The notes under the pieces: model-generated
Seen by the model: only the letters and a program-made list of their open reading frames with translations
Databases searched by the model: none
What the model was told of the DNA's origin: nothing
Translations under genes and position numbers: made by a program
Shown here: positions 4,416 through 18,006 of the stretch, piece after piece
Layout: each line of letters starts with the position of its first letter
How positions within the stretch are numbered: the stretch's first letter is position 1
From: Candidatus Nanohaloarchaea archaeon
GTDB lineage: Archaea; Nanohalarchaeota; Nanosalinia; Nanosalinales; Nanosalinaceae
Direction of reading: 5' to 3'
Assembly: GCA_042217695.1 (NCBI GenBank)
Contig: JBDGSE010000044.1
Coordinates: forward strand, 1 to 18,925
Length of the DNA: 18,925 nt

Positions 4416-5309
4416 ATGGAAGAAGAGGTAAAGCAGCACTACATCCGTGCCGGAGAGGCGATACAGAAGGCCCGGAAAACCGCGCGCGAAGTTGCAAAAC
4501 CCGGTACGAACCTGAAGGTCATCTCTGACACTATCGAGGACCAGATACGGGAGGCCGGGCTTGAACCCGCGTTCCCCGTGAACCTTTCGATCGATGACGA
4601 GGCCGCCCACTACACCCCTCCGCCGCAGGAAGACCGCGAACTGAAACCGGATGACGTCCTGAAGATAGATATCGGCGCACATTCTGACGGTTACATCGCA
4701 GATACAGCGCTCACGGTAAATCCCTCCGGGAGCCGCCAGGAGATGATAGACACTGTTGAAGAAGTGCTTGAAGCCGCCCTGGATTTCCTGGAGCCGGGCA
4801 GGACGGTCGAGGAGTTTGGCGCCCACGTCGAGTCCCAGATCCCCGACGGGTACGAACCCATACGGAACCTGACAGGTCACTACCTGGGGCGTTACACTCA
4901 ACACGCAGGTGTTTCGATACCCAACGTGGATAACGGTTCCAGCCACGTGTTCAGGGAGGGCGACGCTGTTGCGATCGAGCCTTTCCTCACGGATGGCAGC
5001 GGTCAGATAAAGGAAGGCGCTCCGGGAAACATCTACAAGATGGAGTCCGACAGGAACGTCCGTGGAAGGGTGGAAAGAAGAATGCTCGGCGAGATAAAGA
5101 CTTTCGACGGCCTGCCCTTCACCACTCGCTGGTTTGATTCCTACACGGGGAGGGAAAAGATGGCGATGAAGAAGCTGGTGGATGCCGGCATAGTACATTC
5201 CTACCCTGTCCTCAAGGAGATAAACGGCGGTACAGTGGCGCAGGCGGAGCACACCGTTCTTGTGGGTGCGGATGACGGCGAGAACGTGGTAACTACTCGT
5301 CAGGGTTGA
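4416..5309 (+). CDS. map: methionine aminopeptidase type II
   Basis: AFPVNLSIDDEAAHYTP, KIDIGAHSDGYIADTA, NLTGH, HAGVSIPN, AIEPF, type II insert (GLPFTTRW), YPVLKE...VAQAEHTV. Confidence 0.97.
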   Translation: MEEEVKQHYIRAGEAIQKARKTAREVAKPGTNLKVISDTIEDQIREAGLEPAFPVNLSIDDEAAHYTPPPQEDRELKPDDVLKIDIGAHSDGYIADTALTVNPSGSRQEMIDTVEEVLEAALDFLEPGRTVEEFGAHVESQIPDGYEPIRNLTGHYLGRYTQHAGVSIPNVDNGSSHVFREGDAVAIEPFLTDGSGQIKEGAPGNIYKMESDRNVRGRVERRMLGEIKTFDGLPFTTRWFDSYTGREKMAMKKLVDAGIVHSYPVLKEINGGTVAQAEHTVLVGADDGENVVTTRQG

Positions 5310-5814
5310 ACTCGCACAGGTCGGGGTCTCCAAGGTCGGACAGGTAGTAGAGCAGGAGAGCCAGGCCGCCTATCCTCACCAAGTCGCCGCTGAAAGGCAT
5401 CGCCGCCAGCGCCCCTGTGAAACCGAGAAGCCCGATTATTCCTGCTCCGCAGGAGGCGCAACCGCTTACCAGTATCCCTGGCAGTACACCAGCGAAGGCC
5501 TGCGCTCCTGAACGGGCGGAGATAGCGAAACTCACCAGGGCCACACCGGTCAGGGGAGCGTATAGTGCTGTTATGAAGAGCGTGTTGTAGCCCATGCTTG
5601 CCGCTATGTTCAGGCTGAGGTCTTTAACCGCTATCAAAGTCGGTAAAAACCCGGAGGAAATCATCTGCATGGAGTAACCTGGGAAGGAGCTCAGCACCAG
5701 CAGGGAATAGGCCACGAACGTTATGGCTGTGACGGAGAACAGTCTTTCTGGGCTGCGTCCCATCGCGCGGAACGAATCCTCTACCGCTCTAAAGCGTTTC
5801 TCCAGCAGAGCCAT
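5293..5814 (-). CDS. multi-pass membrane protein with CxxC motif (SGCASCG)
   Basis: 173 aa, 4-5 hydrophobic segments, GCASCG and a C-terminal DPDLC. The ATG lies 1 nt after the stop of the upstream DsbA-like gene. The 3' end overlaps map by 17 nt (convergent). Confidence 0.85.
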   Translation of the reverse strand: MALLEKRFRAVEDSFRAMGRSPERLFSVTAITFVAYSLLVLSSFPGYSMQMISSGFLPTLIAVKDLSLNIAASMGYNTLFITALYAPLTGVALVSFAISARSGAQAFAGVLPGILVSGCASCGAGIIGLLGFTGALAAMPFSGDLVRIGGLALLLYYLSDLGDPDLCEFNPDE

Positions 5815-5815
5815 T

Positions 5816-6733
5816 TTATTCGGCCAGTTCAGATTCTATGGCTTTTTGGAAGTTCATGAACGGCTGCGCCCCGACTATCTTCTGGTTCTCCACGAATACT
5901 GTCGGCGTGCCGCCTACACCCTTTCTCGATCCCTGCTGGAAGTCTTCCCGTACTTCCGGGAGTTCTTCTTTGTTGTTGTAGCACTGTTTGAACTGCTGGA
6001 CGTCGAGGCCTGTCTGTTCCGCCCACCGAACCATGGAACGGTCGAACAGCGTCTGGTTGGTCTTGTAGAGGTTGGTAAGCAGATCCTTGTTGTTGAAGAA
6101 CCCTTTCTGGAACGTCCAGAACGCCTTGACGTCCTGGTTGAGCGCGCATTCGGAGGCTATTGCCGCGTCCACTGCCCAGGGATGTATGTTGCTTAACGGG
6201 AAATGCTTGTAGAAGTACTGTACTTTCCCTTTGCTTATGTAGTTCTTGACTATGTCCTGGTAGGCGCCTTGGTGGTAACGATTGCAGAACGGGCATTCAA
6301 AGTCCTCGTAGGCCACCATGGTTACCTCTGCGTCCGGGTTCCCTATGTAGGGTTCTCCAGTCACCTTGGCGGTGAGGTTATCCATGGGCTCGGAGGAGTC
6401 CGCGATCCCTGTCGGGATGCCCTTGTAGGGGTATTCCGTGTTCTTCAGTTCCACGAGCCTCGAGTTGGATGGAGAACTACCGGCTTTACCGACATCTCCG
6501 GCCATGAGAGACATCCCGAAACCGCCGAGCACAAGTCCGAGGAAGAAAGATAGTGCGAGAGCCTGGTTCAGGCTGAGCACGAGTTTCTCTCCTCTTGGAA
6601 GTATGCCGGAACTGTTTCCTGTCTCGTCCATGCTTTTCTCATCTCCTTCATGTGCCTGTGATTTGTGGACCTTGAGTCCTCTCTGGGAGTCGAAACTCCT
6701 GCCGCATTCGTCGCACCGGTGTTCCTCGGCCAT
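5816..6733 (-). CDS. DsbA/BdbD-family thioredoxin-fold protein with N-terminal C2H2 zinc finger and membrane anchor
   Basis: CDEC-x12-H-x4-H at residues 7-28, TM segment ALALSFFLGLVLGGFGMSLM, GNPDAEVTMVAYEDFECPFC active site, KHFPL, AAIASECA, cis-Pro loop GVGGTPTVFV, GAQP. Confidence 0.92.
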   Translation of the reverse strand: MAEEHRCDECGRSFDSQRGLKVHKSQAHEGDEKSMDETGNSSGILPRGEKLVLSLNQALALSFFLGLVLGGFGMSLMAGDVGKAGSSPSNSRLVELKNTEYPYKGIPTGIADSSEPMDNLTAKVTGEPYIGNPDAEVTMVAYEDFECPFCNRYHQGAYQDIVKNYISKGKVQYFYKHFPLSNIHPWAVDAAIASECALNQDVKAFWTFQKGFFNNKDLLTNLYKTNQTLFDRSMVRWAEQTGLDVQQFKQCYNNKEELPEVREDFQQGSRKGVGGTPTVFVENQKIVGAQPFMNFQKAIESELAE

Positions 6734-10242: not shown

Positions 10243-11013
10243 ATGAAAGTAGCGCTTCTGGGTCCCGCGGGCACATACACACATCAGGCCGCAGAGGAAT
10301 ACTTTGACGAACTGGAACCCGTGTTCCTATCCACTGTGAGAGAGGTGTTCGATTCCGACGTCGAGGTAAAACTTGTACCTGTGGAGAACTCTCTGGGCGG
10401 CGGCGTCACCGACACCGTGGATCTGCTGAGGGAGAGAGACGTTGAAGTAACCGGTGAAAAAGTGCTGCCCATCGAGCACTGTCTTATCTCGCCGGAAAAC
10501 TCGGTTGAAGACATCGAAAAAGTGAGGTCGCATCCCCAGGCGCTTTCCCAGTGTCAGGAGTTTATAGCCGGTCATGACTGGGAACAGGAGGAGTCTCCCT
10601 CCACCGCAGAAGCAACGGAAGACCTGTCTCCCGGGGAGGCCGCGATAGCATCTGAAGCCGCGGCGAACGGCCTGAACCTTCTCGAGGAAGGTATACAGGA
10701 CAGTGATTCGAACGTCACCCGTTTCCTAGTGCTGAACGGTGAACGCGGAAAAGGCGACAGGACATCCATTATACTGGAGCCGGGAGAGGACCGGCCAGGG
10801 CTTCTGAGCAACATGCTTTCATGTTTCTCCGGTCACGGGATAAACCTGACGCATATCCAGTCCCGCCCGAAAAAGACTGAACTCGGCGAATACTACTTCT
10901 ACGTGGAGGCCTCCGCGGGAGAACATGAACAGCGGTTCCAGGACGCGCTGCAGTGTCTGGAGACTTACGCCCGGGTCGAGGTCCTGGGCTCCTACACCGG
11001 TGACAGGATATGA
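10243..11013 (+). CDS. pheA: prephenate dehydratase (PDT + ACT)
   Basis: LGPAGTYTH, VPVENSLGG, SHPQALSQC, NVTRF, ACT domain EDRPGLL...INLTHIQSRP...YYFYVE. Start moved to ATG 10243, which has GAGGT at 10232-10236 and avoids overlap with radB. Confidence 0.93.
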   Translation: MKVALLGPAGTYTHQAAEEYFDELEPVFLSTVREVFDSDVEVKLVPVENSLGGGVTDTVDLLRERDVEVTGEKVLPIEHCLISPENSVEDIEKVRSHPQALSQCQEFIAGHDWEQEESPSTAEATEDLSPGEAAIASEAAANGLNLLEEGIQDSDSNVTRFLVLNGERGKGDRTSIILEPGEDRPGLLSNMLSCFSGHGINLTHIQSRPKKTELGEYYFYVEASAGEHEQRFQDALQCLETYARVEVLGSYTGDRI

Positions 11014-11351
11014 GAGACGCGATCGAAAACCTACGGCTTTCGATAAGAAAGGTTTCCGAAAAAGCGGCGGAACAGGACGACGTGGTCAGGTTCGACATAG
11101 GCCAGCCAAGCTTTGACACACCAGAACATGTGAAGGAAGCCGCCAGTGAGGGGCTGGAGCACAGACAGGGCTACTCTCCTGTTGCAGGGATCGAACAGCT
11201 CCGGGAGGCGGTCGCAGGAGAAGAGTCCATGAAGAAAGGTGTCGAAGTTGGGAAAGAACAGGTGATGATCACCACCGGCGGGATGGGCGCCCTCTATTCT
11301 GTGCTGGCGGCGGAACTCGGCCCTGAAGTCGTAGACGCTGCGGGCGTGTAG
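11010..11351 (+). pseudogene. truncated class I/II PLP-dependent (aspartate/aromatic) aminotransferase, N-terminal ~105 aa only
   Basis: SIRKV...FDIGQPSFDTPEHVKEAA...GYSPVAGIEQLREAVA...QVMITTGGMGAL...LGP is a typical aminotransferase N-terminus. Similarity stops at about 11324. No NP-NP-G, DE-Y or PLP-lysine motif follows, and only about 130 nt remain before topA. ATGA overlap with pheA. Confidence 0.85.
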
Positions 11352-11483
11352 AAGTACGATGTCGGGGTCCCTCTGGTTAAAAGCTGGATGCCGCAGCGGC
11401 AGATTCTCTTTCCTTTTTGTCTGATTTCTTTAGAAAGCTGCCGCAGCATGTAAAATTTTTCCGCGGGGTTGTTGATAAGGTTT

Positions 11484-13523
11484 TCAGTCCCAGTCGTCCT
11501 TTGTCGGGCAGTCCGGGTCTATGCACATCGAATACGGTTTCCTTCCTTTCCGGATGACCTTTATCCTCGGTGTGTGGCATTCGTCGCAGGTCTCGTCCAG
11601 GGACTCTATCTTTCCGTCTCCTGGCAGCGGGTAGGTGTTCTCGCAGTCCGGGTAGTTGGAGCAGCCCACGAATCGGCCCTTCTTCGTCTTGATGATTCTC
11701 AGGGTGCCGTCCTCACACTGGTCGCAGGGGCCGAGCTGCCTTCTTTTTTCGCGTTCGGCGTCGATAGTCTCCACCAGTTCGGCGCCTATCTCCTTCTCCT
11801 TCTTCTTGAAATTCTTGAGTATATCCTCCAGGTTTTCCCGGGCCTCGTCAAGCACTTCCTCTCTGGACTCTTTCTCCTCGCGGATGGCCTCCATCTTCTC
11901 CTCGAATTCCCGTGTCAGTGCCTCCGAGAGAACGTCGGGTGCGTAGTCCTCCAGCGTGTCCACTATGGTCAGTCCGAGGTCGGTCACCTCTATAGGTTCG
12001 TTATCGATGAAGTTCCTGTTGTACAGCCGGTCGACCACCTGAGCGCGTGTGGCCTTTGTACCCAGGTTCTTCTTTTCGAGTTCCGAGACTATGCCGGACT
12101 GCGAGTAGCGGTTCGGTGGCTGCGTCTCCTTCTCCGCCAGCTCGAACTCCTCTACGTCCAGTATCTCTCCCTCCTCCAGGTCAGGTAGTTCGGCCTCTTC
12201 TACCCGGACGTATGGGTCGTAGAGGTCGAACCAGTTTCTCTCCTTGGTGACCTTGCTGTTGGCATGGAACTCGTGCCCCTTGACCCCCAGTTTCAGGGTG
12301 AGAGACTGCCTTTTCGCGGCGTCCCCGAACACCGCGAAGAAACGCTTTACAACCAGGTCGTAGATCTTTCTCTGCTGTTTTGAAAGGCCGGAGGGGTGCT
12401 CACCTGTCGGATAAATCGCGGGGTGTGCGTCGTCCTCCTTCTTGCCCTGGCGGGTGTAGAGGTCGTCCTTGTCCAGTACCTTCTGCGCTAAATCTTCGTA
12501 GTTGTCCTGTTTCTTTAGTTTCCCGAGAAGGTTTTTGTAGCCGATTTTCGGCGGTAGTTTCTGGGATTCGGTCCTGGGATAGGAGATGAGGCCCTGTTCG
12601 TAGAGTTCCTGTGCCAGCTGCTGCGTTCTCTTGGGAGAGATGTTGAACTGGCTGGAGGCCTCCTTCTGGAGCCCTGTCAGGTTGAAGGGTATCGGAGGGT
12701 TGTGCTTGTAGTTGTTGACATCGATACCGAGGACCTCTGTCATGTCCTCTCCCTCGACCTGTGAAAATATACGTTCCGCTTCTTCTTCGTCCCATATCCT
12801 GTCTTCCTCTTCTCCCTGATACTTTGCCTGGAACTCCTCGTTGTGTAAAAATATCTCCCAGTATGGGTCTGGTTCGAACTCCTGTATCTCTCTTTCACGT
12901 TCCGCCAGGACTTTCAGCGCAGGACCCTGGACTCTGCCCGTGGAAAGAGTCTTGTAACGGTCGTTCTTCCTCACGGCCTTCATCAGCGCCCTTGAAACGT
13001 TGATACCGTAGTAGAAGTCGAGTATGTGTCTCGTTATACCGGCCTCGGTCATCCCCCGGTCGAATTCCTCCAGGTCGTCGAACGCGTTTCTAAGGTCCGA
13101 GGGGGTCAGAGTCGAGAACTTCATCCTCTTTATCTGGCTTTCGTCCGGGTCCGCCAGGTGTTTTATAACGTTCGCGCCGATGACGGAGCCCTCAAGGTCG
13201 AAGTCGCATGCGTTGATGTACTCGTCCGCCTTCTCTATCTGGTCTTTCAGGTTCCGATAGTACTTCTTGACGTAGCCTGCGTCGTCCTCGGTCTCGAATA
13301 TCGGAGCCCACTCTACGTCGAACACCGGATAGTCCCAGCCGTCGCTGACCTGTTCCAGGTTGAATATGTGGCCGACCGCGGGCGCGATGATGAGCTCGCC
13401 CTCGTCCGTCTGAATCCTGTAGTTTTTAACGCCCCGGTTTTTCTCTATCGAGTAGTCTCCGAGCGCGTTCGCGATACGGGAGGCTACTTTCGGCTTTTCG
13501 CCTATCATCACTCTGGTCGGCAT
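11484..13523 (-). CDS. topA: DNA topoisomerase I (type IA)
   Basis: TOPRIM (IGEKPKVA, PAVGHI, NACDFDLEG), STGRVQGPAL, catalytic GLISYPRTES, DAHPAIYPT, NLGTKATR, and two C-terminal C4 zinc ribbons (CDQC..CSNYPDC; CDEC..CIDPDC). Confidence 0.97.
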   Translation of the reverse strand: MPTRVMIGEKPKVASRIANALGDYSIEKNRGVKNYRIQTDEGELIIAPAVGHIFNLEQVSDGWDYPVFDVEWAPIFETEDDAGYVKKYYRNLKDQIEKADEYINACDFDLEGSVIGANVIKHLADPDESQIKRMKFSTLTPSDLRNAFDDLEEFDRGMTEAGITRHILDFYYGINVSRALMKAVRKNDRYKTLSTGRVQGPALKVLAEREREIQEFEPDPYWEIFLHNEEFQAKYQGEEEDRIWDEEEAERIFSQVEGEDMTEVLGIDVNNYKHNPPIPFNLTGLQKEASSQFNISPKRTQQLAQELYEQGLISYPRTESQKLPPKIGYKNLLGKLKKQDNYEDLAQKVLDKDDLYTRQGKKEDDAHPAIYPTGEHPSGLSKQQRKIYDLVVKRFFAVFGDAAKRQSLTLKLGVKGHEFHANSKVTKERNWFDLYDPYVRVEEAELPDLEEGEILDVEEFELAEKETQPPNRYSQSGIVSELEKKNLGTKATRAQVVDRLYNRNFIDNEPIEVTDLGLTIVDTLEDYAPDVLSEALTREFEEKMEAIREEKESREEVLDEARENLEDILKNFKKKEKEIGAELVETIDAEREKRRQLGPCDQCEDGTLRIIKTKKGRFVGCSNYPDCENTYPLPGDGKIESLDETCDECHTPRIKVIRKGRKPYSMCIDPDCPTKDDWD

Positions 13524-16601: not shown

Positions 16602-16609
16602 TTTATATT
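16602..16609 (+). promoter_or_regulatory. TATA box (TTTATATT) of 7-TM paralogue A
   Basis: 23-30 nt upstream of ATG 16632. Confidence 0.6.
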
Positions 16610-16631: not shown

Positions 16632-17279
16632 ATGGCGTATATATATGCTGTCTCCAGTGTAGTTGAGGGAGTGTTCTTCCTGGTGGCTGCGGCTTTTCTT
16701 TACTGGAAGTTAGGACGCAGAGAGTATGATATACGAGTTACGAGGCTAACTATGTACGTCCTGTTCCTCCTCGGACTGTTCCTGATTGGGGCGGGGATTT
16801 CCCTATCAGGGTTTTCCCTCACGCTGGTCATACTCCCCGCTGTACATATATTCATATTCGGCGCCATCGCCTATATGTGGAAGTTTCTCACCGCCTTCCA
16901 TTTCTCAGAACTGGAAAAATACTACCAGGTTTTCTGGGGTCTTGGAGTGCTGTCCGTGCTGATAGGACTGGGTGTTTTTGTCGATGTTCTTCCACCGGTG
17001 ACGGGTAAGATAGTAGCGGCAAGCATGGCGCCCTTCGGTATCGTAGTGGGTCTCCTCGGATATTATTCCGCCTACCGGTTTGGCGGAGCTGACGGACAGA
17101 AGCTGGCGATATTCACTACTGCAGGGGTCGACGCGCTACTTGCTGGCTCCCTTCTTAACAACCTATATCAGGTAGGTGTAATAGAGAACTCTTACCTTGT
17201 TATACTCAACAATCTGCTGTTCCTCTTTCTCTTCCTGCTGGCTGTTTTCTGGGGCCACTTAAAGGGTGTGAAATGGTGA
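16632..17279 (+). CDS. seven-TM membrane protein, paralogue A (215 aa)
   Basis: Seven hydrophobic segments with short loops and no soluble domain. Clearly homologous to the next ORF. Confidence 0.9.
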   Translation: MAYIYAVSSVVEGVFFLVAAAFLYWKLGRREYDIRVTRLTMYVLFLLGLFLIGAGISLSGFSLTLVILPAVHIFIFGAIAYMWKFLTAFHFSELEKYYQVFWGLGVLSVLIGLGVFVDVLPPVTGKIVAASMAPFGIVVGLLGYYSAYRFGGADGQKLAIFTTAGVDALLAGSLLNNLYQVGVIENSYLVILNNLLFLFLFLLAVFWGHLKGVKW

Positions 17280-17322
17280 TTTTCCGGCTGTCTCCCTGTA
17301 ATTGAAGAAGCTATTAGGGTGC

Positions 17323-17330
17323 TTTATAAA
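17323..17330 (+). promoter_or_regulatory. TATA box (TTTATAAA) of 7-TM paralogue B
   Basis: 23-30 nt upstream of ATG 17353, the same spacing as paralogue A. Confidence 0.65.
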
Positions 17331-17352
17331 GGAGAGTCTATTCTTGGTTAAC

Positions 17353-18006
17353 ATGTCGAAGCTCTACGCCCTTTCCCACGGCATTGAAGGCCTGCTTTTC
17401 CTCGCGGCCGCTTCGTTCCTTTACTGGCGTTTGAGGAACAGGGAGTATGATATCCGTGTTACACGCCTGACGATGTATGTCCTGGCGTTGCTTGGCCTGT
17501 TCTTCGAAGGTATCTACCTGGCAACCGGAGTCCTGGGTAACTCTCTGACAGCGGCCGTAATCCCGGTAGTACACCTGTTCGTCTTCGGGGCGATAGCCTA
17601 TATGTGGCAGTTTATCACGGCCTGGAGCTACTCGGAATATGAAAAGTACCACGGTGTGTTCTGGGCTCTGGGCGCCATAAGTGTGCTTGCAGGGTTCGGT
17701 ATATTTGCCGGGGTTATACCTCCAAAGGTTGGCCAGATAATCCCGCTGAGCCTGATACCTGCGGGGATAGCTATAGGAGCGATAGGATTCATGACGGCCA
17801 GCGAGATGGGTGGTGCGGACGGCCAGAAGATAGCGATATTCACGGCAGCGGGGATAGACGCCCTGCTAGTCTCCTCTCTCCTGAACAATCTCTTCCTGGC
17901 GGGAGTCCTGCCCAGTCCGTTTCCCGCTATCGTCAACAACCTGCTTTACGGCGGTCTGTTCCTGCTGGCGGTGTTCTGGGGCCATATAAAAGGAGTGGAG
18001 TGGTAG
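17353..18006 (+). CDS. seven-TM membrane protein, paralogue B (217 aa)
   Basis: Start moved to ATG 17353, which aligns with Met1 of paralogue A and fits the TATA spacing. About 58% identical to A by manual alignment (about 127/217). Confidence 0.9.
   Translation: MSKLYALSHGIEGLLFLAAASFLYWRLRNREYDIRVTRLTMYVLALLGLFFEGIYLATGVLGNSLTAAVIPVVHLFVFGAIAYMWQFITAWSYSEYEKYHGVFWALGAISVLAGFGIFAGVIPPKVGQIIPLSLIPAGIAIGAIGFMTASEMGGADGQKIAIFTAAGIDALLVSSLLNNLFLAGVLPSPFPAIVNNLLYGGLFLLAVFWGHIKGVEW

Follow-up and report, generated by a model that had tools for sequence, protein, structure and literature searches.

What do two small membrane proteins do that are encoded side by side in a Candidatus Nanohaloarchaea genome and consist of little more than seven transmembrane (7TM) helices? 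The genes, called A and B here, lie in the window that was analysed, the 18,925-nt contig C39 of genome G000 (757 kb, 83% complete), and are flanked on the opposite strand by genes that we take, from their sequences, to encode seryl- and tyrosyl-tRNA synthetase. An initial annotation had described A and B as adjacent paralogues of about 58% identity, stand-alone and lacking a soluble output domain, each with its own TATA box at the same spacing and with no kinase or transducer encoded nearby. This description is borne out by our analysis: the two tandem ORFs share 127 of 215 residues (59%) in a pairwise alignment, the 2-aa indel noted before in the TM2-3 loop is the only one, both proteins end after TM7, and no kinase gene is found near A/B in G000 or in G012, a genome in which the tandem pair is found again between the same neighbours. 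For B an alternative, longer TTG start is listed at 17302, and the ATG at 17353 is preferred on account of the alignment with A and the promoter spacing. TTTATA begins exactly 30 nt before the ATG in both genes, which is the ordinary promoter position in this genome (TTTAWA at -28..-32 precedes 32 of 462 ORFs of G000 vs 6 of 462 in the control window), so that a special promoter arrangement for A/B was rejected. The features of the locus are collected in Table 1.

Table 1. Features of the A/B locus, and related genes elsewhere in the genomes compared.
Feature	Position	Strand	Basis
7TM protein A, 215 aa, predicted GPCR-like fold, predicted N-out/C-in	16632..17279	+	alignment, model, fold search
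7TM protein B, 217 aa, 59% identical to A	ATG 17353..18006	+	sequence, alignment with A
TATA-like box TTTATA, 30 nt before the ATG of A	16602..16607	+	sequence and genome background
TATA-like box TTTATA, 30 nt before the ATG of B	17323..17328	+	sequence
A residues 30-44 (TM1-2 loop and start of TM2), identical in protein B, 8/15 codons synonymously changed	16719..16763	+
His72 in TM3, most conserved polar intramembrane residue of the family (45/49)	16845..16847	+
Cytoplasmic TM5-6 loop of A, GGADGQK; G152 in 45/49 and K157 in 44/49 family members	17082..17102	+
Small membrane proteins beside untailed SH genes	G000:C31:8259-9721, 10676-11544; C2:13706-14399; C22:7564-8505; L046-L048, L066

The stretches that are identical in A and B have been kept by selection, since synonymous codon changes are frequent within them and runs of identical DNA are short. 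In the TM1-2 stretch all 15 residues are the same and 8 of the 15 codons differ synonymously; over the whole length, codons differ at 71 of the 127 shared residues, and no stretch of identical DNA exceeds 12 nt. On these grounds gene conversion was rejected as an explanation for the identical loops.

The AlphaFold2 (AF2) model of A, built from 49 family sequences, has the seven helices that had been annotated (residues 2-28, 35-58, 64-87, 92-116, 123-150, 152-180 and 188-210; pLDDT 94, pTM 0.90). Lysine and arginine are more frequent on the side of L12, L34, L56 and the C-terminus in 49/49 aligned family members, which by the positive-inside rule predicts an N-out/C-in topology and agrees with the earlier placement of the conserved segments in the cytoplasm. 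When homologues were collected and conservation was mapped by membrane side, as had been proposed, the inner face exceeded the outer one at each level: identity between A and B is 0.70 inside and 0.44 outside (segment-label permutation p=0.001), and conservation is 0.39 vs 0.27 in 11 A/B-clade sequences (p=0.0003) and 0.32 vs 0.26 family-wide (49 members, p=0.045), with TM limits set by hand from hydropathy. Such an asymmetry alone does not single out receptors. The polar intramembrane residues reported to be shared by A and B fall in two groups. His72, N177 (38/49) and N194 (35/49) are found family-wide, as are W83 (42/49), G152 and K157, whereas the Glu in TM1 (7/49) and the Asp in TM6 (6/49) are peculiar to the pair or to its subclade rather than family features, and so is the REYD motif (R30 in 3/13 and D33 in 2/13 A/B-clade members). 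The terminal Trp is invariant in the A/B clade (13/13).

In a search of the A model against 48,161 PDB chains the top matches were two designed GPCR-like folds (Z 17.9 and 17.1), followed by the adhesion receptor ADGRL3 as the best natural match (Z 16.4, rmsd 3.4, 198 aligned residues), and by CD97 (Z 15.4), GABA-B (15.3-15.4), mGlu (14.4) and GPRC5D (within 14.4-15.4); the tool warns that Z values below about 13 are common for helical bundles, and the best microbial rhodopsin (Z 12.6) and AdipoR2 (Z 12.4) fall in that range. The comparison of folds that had been called for thus names GPCRs as the best natural matches, at Z 14-16. The model has the helix order and the N-out/C-in orientation of GPCRs, and it resembles the adhesion (class B2) and class C receptors over about 200 residues, including a conserved cytoplasmic face. 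It differs from them in its low identity (6-14%), in its very short loops and in its candidate partner, SH (see below), a 95-aa helical domain that has no GTPase fold. Neither A nor B contains DRY or NPxxY, which are motifs of class A GPCRs. The fold by itself is no novelty, as GPCR-like folds among archaeal 7TM proteins are already reported in PMC13581589. Microbial rhodopsins and heliorhodopsins are likewise stand-alone proteins of seven helices and similar size, but there is no Lys in TM7 (residues 188-210 in A, and the corresponding helix in B) and no rhodopsin Pfam match, so that A and B are indeed not retinal-binding rhodopsins, as had been stated.

At the sequence level the family stands apart from named families. 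No Pfam family scored above cut-off in the 49 members, NCBIfam gave no match for A, B or a third 7TM protein of the genome, paralogue C, and when PDB sequences were searched with profiles of 7TM and of SH, nothing scored below E 0.39. PF07695 (7TMR-DISM_7TM) matched 2/49 members weakly (E<=0.01), A itself giving E 0.0059 and 17 bits, below the 29-bit cut-off, and PF16927 (HisKA_7TM) matched 0/49 at E<=0.01. With both families A and B have in common seven helices, a length of about 210-230 aa and the N-out/C-in topology. HisKA_7TM is a sensor domain of haloarchaeal kinases (PMC5847659). Most structural neighbours of A in the ESM Atlas come from the N-terminal regions of kinase, GGDEF and AraC proteins (those above TM 0.5 range from 0.52 to 0.71); the nearest cluster with a family has PF16927 in 10% of its members (score 0.83), and TM 0.61 was found to a cluster with PF16927 in 19% of its members, a match under the bar of the tool. 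The Atlas also holds unnamed look-alikes of 217-240 aa in Bacillota and Promethearchaeota (score 0.94), from which it follows that stand-alone proteins like A are not confined to the nanohaloarchaeal lineage. The model of A therefore resembles a sensor domain with a GPCR fold, of the type found in HisKA_7TM and 7TMR-DISM, although by score A is a member of neither family.

A profile search of 1.84 billion representatives with the 7TM family gave 23 deep matches, 20 of them stand-alone and three of them intact fusions with SH (P0034, P0037 and P0044; SH profile E 1e-24 to 7e-21). SH was the sole domain fused to the 7TM region in these 23 matches, another difference from the HisKA_7TM and 7TMR-DISM families; no kinase, GGDEF or other enzymatic output was found fused in any of them. 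This bears on the reading that A and B serve a membrane histidine kinase in trans, as input modules detached from it, which is suggested by the kinases with an N-terminal 7TM region among the Atlas neighbours (TM 0.71). It is weakened by the observation that the only HATPase_c match in G000 (83% complete) is a CheA-type chemotaxis kinase on contig C4, a classical sensor kinase not being found there, and together with the 0/23 kinase fusions and the kinase-free surroundings of A/B in both genomes this makes such a role very improbable.

A tree of 57 rows, rooted at the midpoint and with several long branches, has fusions in each of its two deep branches. The A/B clade (13 rows, support 100/98) is nested, on a long stem (1.13), in the branch that holds two fusions and the C-type genes found in operons with SH. 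The clade is carried by 2 of the 70 genomes of the phylum, G000 and G012; a metagenome scan with the A/B alignment gave no relatives among 596 pattern matches, and a genome scan with the same alignment found one locus. Paralogue C, the third 7TM gene of G000 (C25:51822-52502), lies 4 nt upstream of a 103-aa SH gene and is about 22% identical to A, with different inner loops and C-termini. A broken 7TM-SH fusion, lacking TM4 and with a frame change, was seen in G022 (L054:1465-2377, G022:C37).

SH is a helical domain of about 95 aa that belongs to no named family and is present in six copies in G000. Its model (pLDDT 93) consists of a long helix, a beta-hairpin, two helices, a linker and a final helix (92-102). 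No Pfam family was found at cut-off in 42 SH sequences, a fold search gave nothing at Z>=8 (H-NOX at Z 6.1 and CARD at Z 5.5 being weak matches), and look-alikes were found in Patescibacteria (score 0.88, TM 0.67-0.69). A search for longer SH-containing proteins gave no matches among 8000 candidates; it was a weak search, as fusions do exist. PMC5847659 describes NitrOD2/4/5 as small helical domains, archaeal and death-domain-like, that occur in several stand-alone copies per genome and are tied to signalling. SH is also small, helical, multi-copy and signalling-linked, with a weak CARD-like match, but it has a central beta-hairpin, all its fold matches are below Z 8, and 0/42 SH sequences match the NitrOD, MetOD and HalOD families of Pfam (PF18550 and PF11537 included).

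Another important finding was the extent to which SH is associated with the 7TM family. Beside the 3/23 fusions, 16 of 27 distinct family genes at the loci fetched have an SH gene no more than 700 nt away (29 rows, after merging of one duplicate and of the two halves of a broken gene; one of the 11 genes lacking SH ends at a contig edge). Four arrangements were found: a downstream operon, a head-to-head pair (twice, in G049), the order 7TM-Roadblock-SH-7TM (in G047) and an SH-Roadblock-SH fusion directly upstream (G012:C2), so that two of the four include Roadblock. SH is found in 9 of the 10 genomes with a strong 7TM match vs 23 of 70 overall, a count that leaves out the weak 7TM match of G071 and to whose p-value we give no weight, the genomes being kin; the one 7TM genome in which SH was not matched, G044, is 78% complete. 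Furthermore, a C-terminal tail of the type K-A-E-x-F-A-S-A-L is present in 14 of 16 SH proteins adjacent to 7TM genes and in all three fusions. Of the 42 other SH proteins 3 have it, namely one next to Roadblock, one within a che cluster and one that fits the pattern loosely. The Fisher p of 7e-9 for the tail overstates the case, because 11 of the 14 tailed neighbours are orthologues from one subfamily, with which as query 8 loci were fetched, and because the regular expression used for scoring was written after inspection of examples; the adjacency and tail counts are both inflated by kin. We nevertheless consider it quite probable that 7TM and SH are functionally coupled at the level of the family, and SH is thereby a candidate for the co-occurring soluble partner that the initial annotation had proposed to look for. 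No earlier account of a 7TM-SH system was found in our searches of the literature on nanohaloarchaeal and archaeal 7TM signalling; SH may already bear an arCOG number.

The genes next to SH at the loci examined are mostly signalling genes: FIST (PF08495/PF10442), Roadblock, a V4R-like gene (a weak match), 3-4-helix membrane proteins and chemotaxis clusters, the che labels being in part our own assignments from sequence. All nine genomes with CheW also have SH. A strict tie of the 7TM family to chemotaxis was rejected, as 4 of 10 7TM genomes have no CheW match, two of these being at least 92% complete. Several observations were made around these genes. A chemotaxis cluster on C4 of G000 (about 11660-19730) comprises two CheY-like genes, CheW, CheB, CheA, CheC-like and CheD-like genes and a receptor-like gene of 683 aa, and CheW was found in just 3 of 49 other genomes of the same taxonomic family. 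The 3-4-helix membrane proteins have a GGxxG(R/K)A-type loop, are often paired and lie beside untailed SH genes (Table 1); they may form another sensor family, likewise unnamed, that belongs to the same hub. In L046, L047 and L048, pairs of small membrane proteins are followed by SH-like proteins that measure 185-198 aa and comprise one and a half SH repeats. Near an untailed SH gene on C31 there are perhaps three FIST-like genes or fragments, one of them confirmed by Pfam. Three KaiC-like ATPase genes surround a Roadblock gene in G000:C43:4-3783, and Roadblock and KaiC matches also occur together on G012:C22.

The GPCR-like fold is no proof of a receptor, since non-receptors share it (e.g. 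AdipoR2), and A and B might instead be small transporters, lipid-handling proteins or membrane enzymes built on the same bundle. Conserved polar residues inside the membrane (H72, N177, N194) would suit such a function, and so would the genomic context of the C-type 7TM-SH operons (L003, L058, L059, L061, L062, L064 and L065), which often adjoin genes that we presume to encode dihydrofolate reductase, thymidylate synthase and serine hydroxymethyltransferase-like proteins; this folate/thymidylate neighbourhood may be inherited synteny only. In membrane hydrolases of the PAQR/CREST type zinc is bound by three conserved histidines. A three-His metal site was not found in the 49 sequences, in which H72 is the only near-invariant His, no transporter or membrane-enzyme family scored above cut-off in Pfam (0/49) or NCBIfam, a check that had also been named at the outset, and the fused or adjacent partner SH goes with signalling genes (FIST, Roadblock, che). 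A role other than sensing is thus improbable, though less so than that of a detached kinase module.

For A and B themselves the connection to SH is indirect. It is drawn from their nesting in an SH-coupled family, from shared inner-face residues and from the A/B-type protein P0007 (56% identical to A, tag _00945), which is two accessions apart from the fusion P0037 (tag _00935), each being listed on a 5912-nt contig. The natural candidate for a partner in trans is the product of the SH gene in operon with paralogue C (G000:C25:51506-51817), as it is the only tailed SH of G000. Against the use of SH by A and B count the 0/5 A/B-clade genes with DNA examined that have SH within 700 nt, the low identity of A to C with its differing inner loops and C-termini, and the lack of an SH match in G044; SH was also absent at five genes of the other branch. 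A complex prediction for A with the tailed C25 SH gave a score of 0.00 in two runs, for which controls were not folded, and speaks neither for nor against binding. We put the chances as even that A and B make use of SH in trans, and likewise that they are separately promoted, predicted GPCR-like 7TM sensors, likely for outside molecules, that signal in this way.

Somewhat unlikely, but the closest competitor, is the reading that A and B are sensors whose clade has left SH and that they couple to each other as a heterodimer, to the chemotaxis array or to Roadblock/KaiC proteins. The missing adjacency, the long stem branch and the clade's own invariant terminal Trp argue for it, as does the presence of CheW and Roadblock in both A/B-clade genomes among the 70. 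Both genomes, however, also have a tailed SH, P0007 lies close to a 7TM-SH fusion, and W83, G152, K157 and W207 are common to the A/B clade and the SH-linked members; moreover, a promoter-like box for each gene would be needless in an obligate heterodimer.

If A and B do signal in trans to SH, a ligand would bind from the variable outer half, near His72, Asn177 and Asn194, upon which the conserved inner face (the start of TM2, W83, G152-K157 and W207) would change shape and engage the tailed SH, perhaps via the tail helix with its hydrophobic end. SH, found also beside FIST, V4R-like, Roadblock, 3-4TM and chemotaxis genes, might then relay the signal to a shared protein-interaction network, with motility control as a possible output. 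In GPCR coupling use is made of the C-terminal helix in which G-alpha ends, and the short terminal helix of SH with its hydrophobic C-terminus is reminiscent of it. From this analogy one may picture a kinase-free, GPCR-like nanohaloarchaeal pathway in which stand-alone receptors dock the hydrophobic SH tail in their cytoplasmic cavity as GPCRs dock the G-alpha C-terminus, untailed SH proteins serve FIST, V4R and 4TM sensors, everything feeds a single hub linked to Roadblock and chemotaxis, and A and B provide two additional inputs, which might help to locate the haloarchaeal host. We regard this extended picture as doubtful, and the docking of the tail in a receptor cavity, taken by itself, as slightly more doubtful still. 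If true, tail docking would be a prokaryotic parallel to, or precursor of, GPCR coupling.

On balance A and B likely belong to a real GPCR-fold, kinase-free family of 7TM sensors with an undescribed tail-bearing candidate adaptor, which would be a variant form of 7TM sensing in prokaryotes. Stand-alone proteins with a GPCR fold are common among archaea, and here the fusions, the four gene arrangements and the partner-specific tail name one small candidate partner, which is easily expressed and turns the question of the signalling partner into a binding experiment. The family is also a pointer to a layer of signalling in the host-dependent nanohaloarchaea that has gone unannotated. An early census listed no two-component system in the single complete nanohaloarchaeal genome (PMC5847659), and it has been suggested that nanohaloarchaeal chemotaxis genes aid host finding (PMC9765267).

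The receptor-like reading of the initial annotation holds in so far as the proteins are stand-alone 7TM proteins with a shared cytoplasmic face, are not rhodopsins, have no adjacent kinase and have, at the family level, a partner candidate in SH. Its simple rule of two receptors for different ligands fits poorly, because the two copies in G012, 57% identical in the N-terminal part, are 94% identical in the C-terminal half with the outer loops included. One-to-one orthology of A and B with the G012 copies is not supported, as the latter group together even on the N-terminal part (99/99). A 239-nt identical tract that is common to both G012 genes (L002:1498-2855, G012:C19) spans the outer loops, and is the result of either gene conversion or assembly collapse.

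Two further observations concern the remainder of the window. A protein encoded at 5816-6733 on the minus strand unites a C2H2-type zinc finger with a single membrane helix and a DsbA/thioredoxin domain; next after it, at 5293-5814, comes a membrane protein of several helices that has CxxC-like motifs. The ORF at 11010-11351 on the plus strand stops after 113 aa, looks truncated and precedes topoisomerase I; we take it to be aminotransferase-like, and it lies directly behind what is presumably a prephenate-dehydratase-like gene.
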